A stretch of DNA of 64,000 bases from Naegleria gruberi (Eukaryota). Both the position numbers and the translations under genes were made by a program. Position 1 is the first letter of the stretch. Every line of letters starts with the position of its first letter. The notes beneath the pieces were generated by a model. That model was not told the origin of the DNA and made no database searches. It worked only from the letters and a program-made list of their open reading frames with translations. This document shows, piece after piece, positions 7,990 through 9,040 of this stretch. The stretch is taken from the NCBI GenBank assembly GCA_000004985.1, contig GG738855.1. One strand, written 5' to 3'.

Positions 7990-9040
7990 ATGGGTCAAGC
8001 AAGTACACAAGAAAAGGGAACCAAAAGTTCTATGATGGATGCAGATGATGATGAAATTCTCAACAATAATAACAGCAAAACAACAGCAACAACTCATCAT
8101 CCAACTACATCATCAACCACCAGTGCTACAAGCAGCAATACAGTTGGCTCTAAAAATAAGATAAATGAATCAATACAAATAGTATCAATAGAAAAGGAAA
8201 ATGAGGAGGAGTATGATTATTTAGTGAAGGTTGTTCTTGTGGGAGATTATGGAGTCGGTAGGTTTTTAATAATATTCTAAATAGTAATTTAAATTTCTAT
8301 TATTTATTGATCATTCACCTGTGAATAATCTATCGGATACAAATTATAGGTAAAACTAGTTTGGCCAAGAAAATCAGTCAAAGAGGTTTCACAACACAAC
8401 ATCAACCTACTATTGGTATTGATTTTGTTGTTTGTACTCTTATTTTGAACACCAAGGAAACTGGTAAGTTACTGTTAATAATTTATTAACGATTTTCTCA
8501 TCAAATAATATCAGTTCGTCTCCAACTTTGGGATACTGCTGGTAAGTTATATGGAAATTTATTGTAATGATTAATTTCATAAATGCAGGTCAAGGTATGT
8601 TGTCATGATAAAATGTTGTAAAATTTAAACAATTGAAATTGAAAATTTAACCAAATTTAAACCAAATTCAAATTCTTACCTTAATAGAAAAATTCAAGGC
8701 TCTTGCTAGCTCATTTTTCCGTGGGGCTGATGGTATTTTTGTTATTGCTGACATTAGCGAAAAATCATCCTTTGACAGAGTTCCAGGATTTTTGGAAGAT
8801 GGTAAAAAGAATTGTACAGATGATGTGGAATTTATTTTCATTGCATCCAAGACAGATCTTCGTAGTATTGGATCATCAACTCAAGTATTGAGCGAAGAAG
8901 ATACTAAGAGAGAATTCAGAAAGTATGATTCACAAATTCCAATAATAGAAACAAGTGCCAAAGAGGACAAGAATGTTGAAAAGGCTCTCCTAACCATCAT
9001 TCAAAGAATTTACAACAAGAAGAAGGAAGCCAAGAAATAA
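7990..9040 (+). CDS. Divergent Rab-like small GTPase. 5 exons, approximately join(7990..8257, 8350..8463, 8515..8541, 8589..8594, 8685..9040).
   Basis: The spliced product reads ...[83 protein letters not shown]...ETSAKED...KKKEAKK*. G1 GxxxxGKT is present, a Rab-type switch I TIGIDF, G3 WDTAGQE, a variant G4 SKTD, and G5 SAK. It has an Asn/Thr-rich N-terminal extension. Introns are 92, 51, 47 and 90 nt with GT..AG ends. The summed exon length is 771 nt, which is 257 codons exactly. Confidence 0.75.

Follow-up and report, generated by a model that had tools for sequence, protein, structure and literature searches.

The stretch of DNA analysed here, referred to as the window, comprises 64,000 nucleotides of contig GG738855.1 from the Naegleria gruberi assembly GCA_000004985.1. 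It is AT-rich (about 34% G+C) and eukaryotic in character, and it carries, among other genes, a Rab-like GTPase gene on the plus strand and a homologue of CLN3 (battenin) on the minus strand. The coding sequence of the Rab gene is distributed over five exons, the fourth of which consists of the six nucleotides GTCAAG and lies within the codons of the DTAGQE motif. Both direct reading and a rebuild by script of this five-exon model give a coding sequence of 768 nt with an open frame of 255 residues. The features of the two genes, in window coordinates, are as follows.

7990-8257, plus strand: exon 1, ATG at 7990; N-terminal extension (MGQAST start) and the start of the P-loop, GDYGV-G, ending in phase 1 within the Gly codon of GK(T)
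8258-8349, plus strand: intron 1, 92 nt, GTAGGT...TATAG, phase 1
8350-8463, plus strand: exon 2, 114 nt, GKTSLAKK...TIGIDF...NTKET-V; the remaining P-loop and switch I
8464-8514, plus strand: intron 2, 51 nt, GTAAGT...ATCAG, phase 1
8515-8541, plus strand: exon 3, 27 nt, 3' end ...TGGGATACTGCTG; (V)RLQLWDTA and base 1 of the Gly codon
8542-8588, plus strand: intron 3, 47 nt, GTAAGT...TGCAG (GTAAGTTAT...AAATGCAG), phase 1 in the Gly codon of DTAG; flanks the microexon upstream
8589-8594, plus strand: exon 4, the microexon, 6 nt, GTCAAG in the context cag/GTCAAG/gtatgt
8595-8687, plus strand: intron 4, 93 nt, GTATGT...AATAG (GTATGTTG...CTTAATAG), phase 1 in the Glu codon; flanks the microexon downstream
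8688-9040, plus strand: exon 5, 353 nt, 5' start AAAAATTCAAG; the remaining switch II, G4 (SKTD), G5 (ETSAK), and the C-terminus ...KKKEAKK, with the TAA stop at 9038-9040
23763-23424, 23301-23011, 22891-22644, 22580-22433, 22359-22330, and 21963-22279, minus strand: the six exons of the CLN3 homologue (battenin)
22330-22359, minus strand: the 30-nt exon of CLN3, encoding the conserved (T)GVFISRSSV(N) with the GVFxSRSS motif

All four introns of the Rab gene (92, 51, 47, and 93 nt) are of the GT-AG type, and their donors, GTAGGT, GTAAGT, GTAAGT, and GTATGT, are strong. Together with the five introns of CLN3 they bring the number of mapped introns to nine, with lengths of 47-122 nt and GTAAGT-like donors, and the two introns flanking the microexon are in line with these in size. 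A first-pass annotation of the sequence had described the hexamer as lying between an upstream intron of 47 nt, which stands, and a downstream intron of 90 nt ending at 8684, which proves to be 93 nt long and to end at 8687. Exon 3 is itself a microexon under a definition of 51 nt or less, its length of 27 nt being the same in all three Naegleria species considered below, and a stretch of ten residues is accordingly encoded by two successive microexons, of 27 nt and 6 nt.

The 30-nt exon of CLN3, which had been pointed out as a second instance of very small exons in this region, is likewise part of a complete gene: the six-exon product of 457 aa, including GVFISRSSV, matches XP_002680118.1 exactly, so that this exon is already annotated. 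The product scores 396.9 bits on the Pfam CLN3 profile with the 30-nt exon and 355 bits when it is left out. The database entry XP_002680118.1 is labelled just 'predicted protein' despite its 397 bits on that profile.

The hexamer and the switch-II motif

GTCAAG contributes the second and third bases of the Gly codon, the full codon of the catalytic Gln, and the first base of the Glu codon to the G3/switch-II motif DTAGQE, and WDTAGQEKF is readable through canonical splice sites only if the hexamer is spliced in between two introns. Enumeration of all single GT..AG introns that keep the frame open from exon 3 to the last exon yields four alternatives, reading WDTAEKF, KETVQKF, WDTAGNSFF, and WDTAGKLYGNLFSFF; the motif is lost in each, and GQE is restored by none of them. 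Retention of either flanking intron leads, on direct reading, to a stop within 6 to 10 codons. Skipping of the microexon remains in frame, removes Gly-Gln to give WDTAEKF, and leaves an open reading frame of 253 codons. The Pfam Ras score amounts to 137.9 bits with the hexamer as opposed to 121.8 bits without it, and this difference, together with the comparison of the two-intron model with its alternatives, indicates that inclusion of the microexon is needed for the conserved protein sequence. The first-pass annotation had argued from the letters that a 6-nt exon is needed to assemble DTAGQE and that removal of a single intron would either lose G-Q or meet a stop, and the need for the 6-nt exon as well as the loss of Gly-Gln on skipping are borne out.

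With AG immediately upstream, GT immediately downstream, and a length well within 15 nt, the hexamer has the properties that define a spliceosomal coding microexon (15 nt or less, AG upstream, GT downstream). A scan of both strands of the 64-kb window finds the pattern AGGTCA[AG]GGT a single time, at 8587, which is the microexon itself. When the 146-nt interval between exons 3 and 5 was shuffled 200,000 times with its dinucleotides preserved, a usable AG/GNCARG/GT leaving both introns at least 30 nt long appeared only 5 times (about 2.5e-5). Because the motif is found once in the window and so few shuffles are usable, the AG/GTCAAG/GT arrangement is not a product of chance. GTCAAG at 8589-8594 is a genuine coding exon, internal to the gene and flanked by two short GT-AG introns. 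Chance fitting of tiny exons is a real caution where introns are long, as in the kilobase introns of fish genes, but it is inapplicable to an interval of 146 nt. The exact-match spliced aligner used for gene mapping, when run with no minimum exon size, produced spurious tiny exons (0-5 nt) in fish, fern, and chytrid genes; it was rerun with a minimum exon of 15 nt, and the Kappamyces model, which proved unmappable, was dropped.

Annotation status

A protein search finds the five-exon product to be 100% identical over 255 aa to XP_002679989.1 (EFC47245.1, UniRef D2V7G1), named 'rab family small GTPase [Naegleria gruberi]', and the public N. gruberi annotation therefore already includes the microexon. 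The annotated orthologues XP_044555599.1 of N. lovaniensis and XP_044568418.1 of N. fowleri contain GQE as well and use the same 6-nt exon. The expectation that gene finders would have missed the microexon, leaving an annotated switch II that is truncated or wrong, is thus contradicted by all three entries, which splice the microexon correctly and call for no annotation repair. The annotations of the three species may perhaps not be fully independent, as protein-homology-guided prediction could propagate a model from one genome to another. A protein of 253 aa corresponding to the exon-skipped form has no entry in a collection of 15 billion proteins. The microexon is genuine and essential, but it is ordinary in kind and already present in the public annotation of three genomes.

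Conservation within Naegleria

The comparison with orthologous Rab genes of related species, which had been proposed as a check on the microexon, recovers the same GTCAAG exon in N. lovaniensis and N. fowleri. The N. lovaniensis orthologue XP_044555599.1 is 75% identical overall, and both it and the N. fowleri orthologue XP_044568418.1 (an identical protein is also deposited as CAG4710880.1) read WDTAGQEKF. In the exact-match spliced alignment, the hexamer with its AG and GT flanks occupies the same two phase-1 positions in these species, between introns of differing length.

N. gruberi, window 8589-8594: GTCAAG, upstream intron 47 nt, downstream intron 93 nt
N. lovaniensis, locus L001 3786-3791: GTCAAG, upstream intron 92 nt, downstream intron 80 nt
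N. fowleri, locus L003 3837-3842: GTCAAG, upstream intron 111 nt, downstream intron 85 nt

A MAFFT alignment of the three genomic intervals did not bring the hexamer of N. gruberi into register with those of the other two species, the introns being too diverged, and the hexamer was instead located across species by motif-anchored mapping and the exact-match spliced aligner. At codons for the same amino acid, N. gruberi shows a synonymous difference from the other two species in about 43-45% of cases, and in the GTPase core it differs from N. lovaniensis and N. fowleri at 8-9 of the 157 aligned residues compared. Given this high synonymous divergence, the splice signals have not been kept merely through recent ancestry. 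Exon and splice sites are conserved and the introns diverged in orthologues from three Naegleria species, all of one genus, and a conserved hexamer amid diverged introns is the signature of a functional spliced exon. Extra synonymous constraint on the hexamer is not apparent among these species: the three codons that it touches are identical in all of them, as are 47% of the comparable codons (p about 0.1).

The remaining structure of the gene is conserved to varying degrees. The position of intron 1 is also found in N. lovaniensis, N. fowleri, and the metagenomic Naegleria-like contig L002, a 903-nt contig whose orthologue (P0006) has introns 1 and 2 in common with N. gruberi and which breaks off after the first 33 nt of intron 2, short of the microexon. 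All introns of the Rab gene are in phase 1 and follow an exonic G, with four in N. gruberi (8258-8687) and five each in N. lovaniensis (L001 3257-4063) and N. fowleri (L003 3260-4121). The extra phase-1 intron of the latter two lies at FVI[A]DVS, where it splits the equivalent of N. gruberi exon 5; its absence from N. gruberi implies gain or loss of an intron within the genus. In N. gruberi (7600-7745, minus strand) and L002, the gene upstream of the Rab gene is transcribed divergently from it, and its product begins with a P-loop (...CAGSTGVGKSALA...). In N. lovaniensis (L001 1788-2838) and N. fowleri (L003 1460-2761), the upstream neighbour codes for Endonuclease V and lies on the strand of the Rab gene. 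As these neighbours differ, local synteny has not been kept across the genus, though the structure of the Rab gene has.

Splicing of the paired introns

GTCAAG is very probably a constitutively included coding microexon, set between two short U2-type GT-AG introns which interrupt the Gly and Glu codons of DTAGQE in phase 1 and lie six bases apart. From conservation and coding logic we infer its inclusion, its constitutive nature, and the order in which the two introns would be removed. Short introns are generally recognised across the intron, in contrast to the exon definition known from vertebrates. The introns of this window are short (47-122 nt), so that each would probably be recognised in this manner, exon length then not being limiting; recognition of short introns by intron definition is covered in PMC6142364 and PMC8831610. 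U1 would bind at intron 4 to AAG (exon positions -3 to -1) plus GTATGT, within six bases of the intron 3 acceptor, and simultaneous occupancy of both sites appears sterically implausible. Because these two sites are only six bases apart, introns 3 and 4 would probably be spliced out sequentially, and once the first had been removed the hexamer would belong to an exon of either 33 nt or 359 nt.

At the transcript level, no transcript-derived copy of the protein is present in the protein collection, the P0001 cluster consisting of one genome-derived member. An exact-pattern scan of JGI metagenome and metatranscriptome contigs for the spliced or skipped junction, TGGGAYACTGCNG N{0,6} AAAAATTYAAGGCTCTTGC, gave no match, and a protein-guided scan of metagenome contigs by alignment of the last exon retrieved no orthologues, all of its matches being distant Rab relatives of 25-34% identity. 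Transcript reads can be assigned by two diagnostic 30-mers, CTTTGGGATACTGCTGGTCAAGAAAAATTC for inclusion and CTTTGGGATACTGCTGAAAAATTCAAGGCT for skipping, and N. gruberi RNA-seq exists as PRJEB23822 (PMC6142364). The locus could be used to test, beyond plants and animals, in which order the introns flanking ultra-short exons are removed. Its value is otherwise modest, that of a clean and conserved protist example of how far intron-definition splicing shrinks an exon, in this case to 6 nt, next to a 27-nt exon, and across catalytic residues.

Were the hexamer a cassette exon, a substantial share of transcripts would have 8542-8687 removed as one intron of 146 nt and would encode an in-frame Rab without Gly-Gln, a regulatory pseudo-GTPase isoform defective in hydrolysis or binding. 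The sequence would permit this, the outer donor GTAAGT and the outer acceptor AATAG being compatible and the resulting intron slightly exceeding the longest one mapped (122 nt); the skipped form, an in-frame open ORF of 253 codons, also still scores above the Pfam Ras threshold at 121.8 bits, and exon skipping in general has been detected in N. gruberi transcriptomes (PMC6142364). In non-animal eukaryotes, however, intron retention dominates and not exon skipping (PMC6142364). Conservation of the hexamer and of both inner splice sites in three species points to selection for inclusion, and the skipped form is without a matching database protein. From what is generally understood of Ras-superfamily GTPases, a protein deprived of its G3 glycine and catalytic glutamine would most probably be misfolded or inactive. 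A cassette exon skipped in a substantial share of transcripts is therefore very unlikely, and slightly less likely again is skipping that is regulated, for example in the amoeba-to-flagellate transition or under stress, and yields a Rab-like isoform that stays in frame but lacks the Gly-Gln of switch II. If such regulation did occur, the isoform might be locked into a single nucleotide state and behave as a built-in dominant-negative or pseudo-GTPase, and a deep-branching protist would have a GTPase switch under the control of splicing.

A further alternative is that the microexon is an artefact of gene modelling, the locus being a pseudo-GTPase or pseudogene in which homology-guided pipelines used a coincidental AG/GTCAAG/GT to rescue the motif. 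That such fits do arise is illustrated by our own exact-match aligner, which, run without a lower limit on exon size, fitted spurious 'exons' of 1-5 nt into the long introns of fish genes, but the interval at issue spans just 146 nt, for which the shuffles put the chance of a suitable hexamer at about 2.5e-5. The identical arrangement is moreover present in two other species, whose introns cannot be aligned, and the 8-9 differences in 157 core residues, set against a synonymous codon change of about 45%, argue for purifying selection and a functional protein. An artefact is accordingly scarcely credible and this explanation is already close to refuted, which leaves constitutive inclusion of the hexamer as the preferred reading.

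Origin of the paired introns

Mapping of the introns in five Rab genes for comparison, of animal, plant, and metamonad origin, revealed none at either of the two Naegleria positions. In catfish Rab8A (L012) and soybean RABH1b (L008) alike, a phase-2 intron interrupts the Trp codon of WDTAGQ. An intron of Anaeramoeba rab8 separates the Gln and Glu codons in phase 0, at a distance of one base from the Naegleria position; another phase-0 intron, in catfish Rab6A, immediately precedes V/I62; and in the fern RabE gene the motif is uninterrupted. On the basis of these five genes, the introns bounding the hexamer look specific to the paralogue or lineage, and they may have originated by the gain of one intron beside an existing one, or by the gain of two, in the lineage of this Rab paralogue. 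A milder variant of the regulated-skipping reading would take the paired phase-1 introns six bases apart to record that an intron was recently gained beside one already present; if so, the locus would provide a useful natural case of microexon birth. An introner-like origin was considered and rejected, the four introns having no other copies in the window beyond low-complexity matches of 11-22 nt. The phase-2 intron in the Trp codon, found both in an animal Rab8 and in a plant gene of the Rab6 type, has the look of an old Rab position and is absent from the Naegleria gene.

The host protein

The protein encoded around the microexon matches the Pfam Ras profile (PF00071) with an E-value of 3e-40 over residues 80-247 and, on reading of its sequence, contains the motifs of a Ras-superfamily G domain from G1 to G5: GDYGVGKT (G1), the T in TIGIDF (G2), DTAGQ (G3), an atypical SKTD (G4), and ETSAK (G5). 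It is closest to Rab and not to Ras, Rho, Arf, or Ran, the best 60 of the 170 PDB matches below 1e-20 all being Rab/Ypt proteins, and among the solved structures listed the best matches are Rab1A/B, Rab8A, and Rab11A, with E-values of about 1e-35 to 1e-31, Rab43 being close to Rab1, Rab8, and Rab11 at around 1e-33 to 1e-35. The initial designation of the gene as Rab-like is upheld by the 137.9 bits on Pfam Ras and by these structures, Rab1, Rab8, and Rab11 leading at about 1e-35. Homologues carry database names as varied as Rab6, Rab8, RABE, and RABH, and no clear assignment to a Rab subfamily emerges from these sequence matches. Orthologues were found only in Naegleria by the protein search.

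The termini of the protein were compared over window positions 7990-8257 and 8980-9040, L001 3001-4350, and L003 3001-4411. The C-terminus has no prenylation cysteine motif (CC, CXC, or CCXX) and no Cys in the last 80 residues, ending in ...IYNKKKEAKK in N. gruberi, ...KKKEAKQ in N. lovaniensis, and ...KKKEAKQN in N. fowleri; 'Rab-like' or atypical Rab is for this reason a better description than canonical Rab. At the other end, a low-complexity N-terminal extension of about 75 residues follows a conserved MG(Q/N)xS(S/T) start in N. gruberi (7990-8257), N. lovaniensis, N. fowleri, and the metagenomic Naegleria-like sequence. These termini suggest that membrane attachment may be achieved via N-myristoylation instead of prenylation. 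The G4 motif at 8850-8864 (ASKTD) reads SKTD in N. gruberi and SKID in N. lovaniensis and N. fowleri, as opposed to the canonical NKxD, and the conserved loss of the G4 Asn in three species might alter nucleotide affinity or specificity. The host protein, a Rab-like GTPase specific to Naegleria that starts with Met-Gly, lacks prenylation cysteines, and has SKTD at G4, is maybe more deserving of attention than the exon.

Several of the top matches to the query are themselves affected by their annotation. The fish 'Rab-6A' proteins P0036, P0070, and P0071 (as in the Ameiurus melas Rab6A gene, L007 3667-5170) contain both copies of a mutually exclusive duplicated exon (...YDIT occurring twice), which is a read-through annotation artefact. 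The scores of these duplicated-exon proteins as top query matches are inflated, as are those of tandem-gene fusions from soybean (P0007) and Lucilia (P0003).

Comparison with known Rab proteins and microexons

The Naegleria protein has GDYGVGKT, TIGIDF, WDTAGQE, and ETSAK in common with canonical Rabs of the Rab1, Rab8, Rab11, and Rab6 groups, one stretch of 13 residues being identical to Rab6. It differs from them in having no C-terminal Cys for geranylgeranylation, an N-terminal extension of about 75 residues, and SKTD in place of NKxD, and its intron positions are not those of the mapped Rab6, Rab8, and RabE genes. Non-prenylated, N-acylated Rabs are known in the form of ARA6/RabF1, a Rab5 paralogue of plants and some alveolates (PMC5869587). 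ARA6/RabF1 and the Naegleria protein have both lost the C-terminal prenylation cysteines and both start with Met-Gly. The former, however, is a relative of Rab5 with an MGC start that conveys dual myristoylation and palmitoylation and with no long spacer, whereas the Naegleria protein is not Rab5-like, has no N-terminal Cys, and includes a long low-complexity spacer, its acylation being predicted only from MGxxS(S/T).

The neuronal microexons of animals (3-27 nt, dependent on SRRM3/SRRM4) resemble GTCAAG in size range, in having a length that is a multiple of 3, and in their location at functional protein surfaces. They are, in contrast, alternative and tissue-regulated, flanked by long introns, and equipped with exon-definition enhancers of the SRRM4 type. 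GTCAAG displays no sign of regulation, its flanking introns in N. gruberi measure 47-93 nt, and its skipping would delete catalytic residues instead of tuning an interaction surface.

The best-fitting kind of known microexon for GTCAAG, constitutive and set between short introns, is that of the ultra-short constitutive microexons of plants, which measure 1-15 nt and include the 1-nt exons of APC11 and VPS55 and pairs of 5 nt and 12 nt (PMC8831610). The plant cases are mostly absent from reference annotations, whereas GTCAAG is annotated in all three Naegleria genomes, and its host is a heterolobosean amoeba, with conservation shown within one genus. Small GTPases find no mention in the plant microexon survey (PMC8831610), and a literature search found no publication on Naegleria microexons. 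Plant microexons and GTCAAG are alike in being internal and coding, in lying within a conserved domain between short canonical introns, and in belonging to gene structures that are conserved across species. Both are also too small for simultaneous occupancy of the two flanking splice sites, and for plants Yu et al. (2022) proposed that the flanking introns of microexons compete, one of them being spliced later (PMC8831610).
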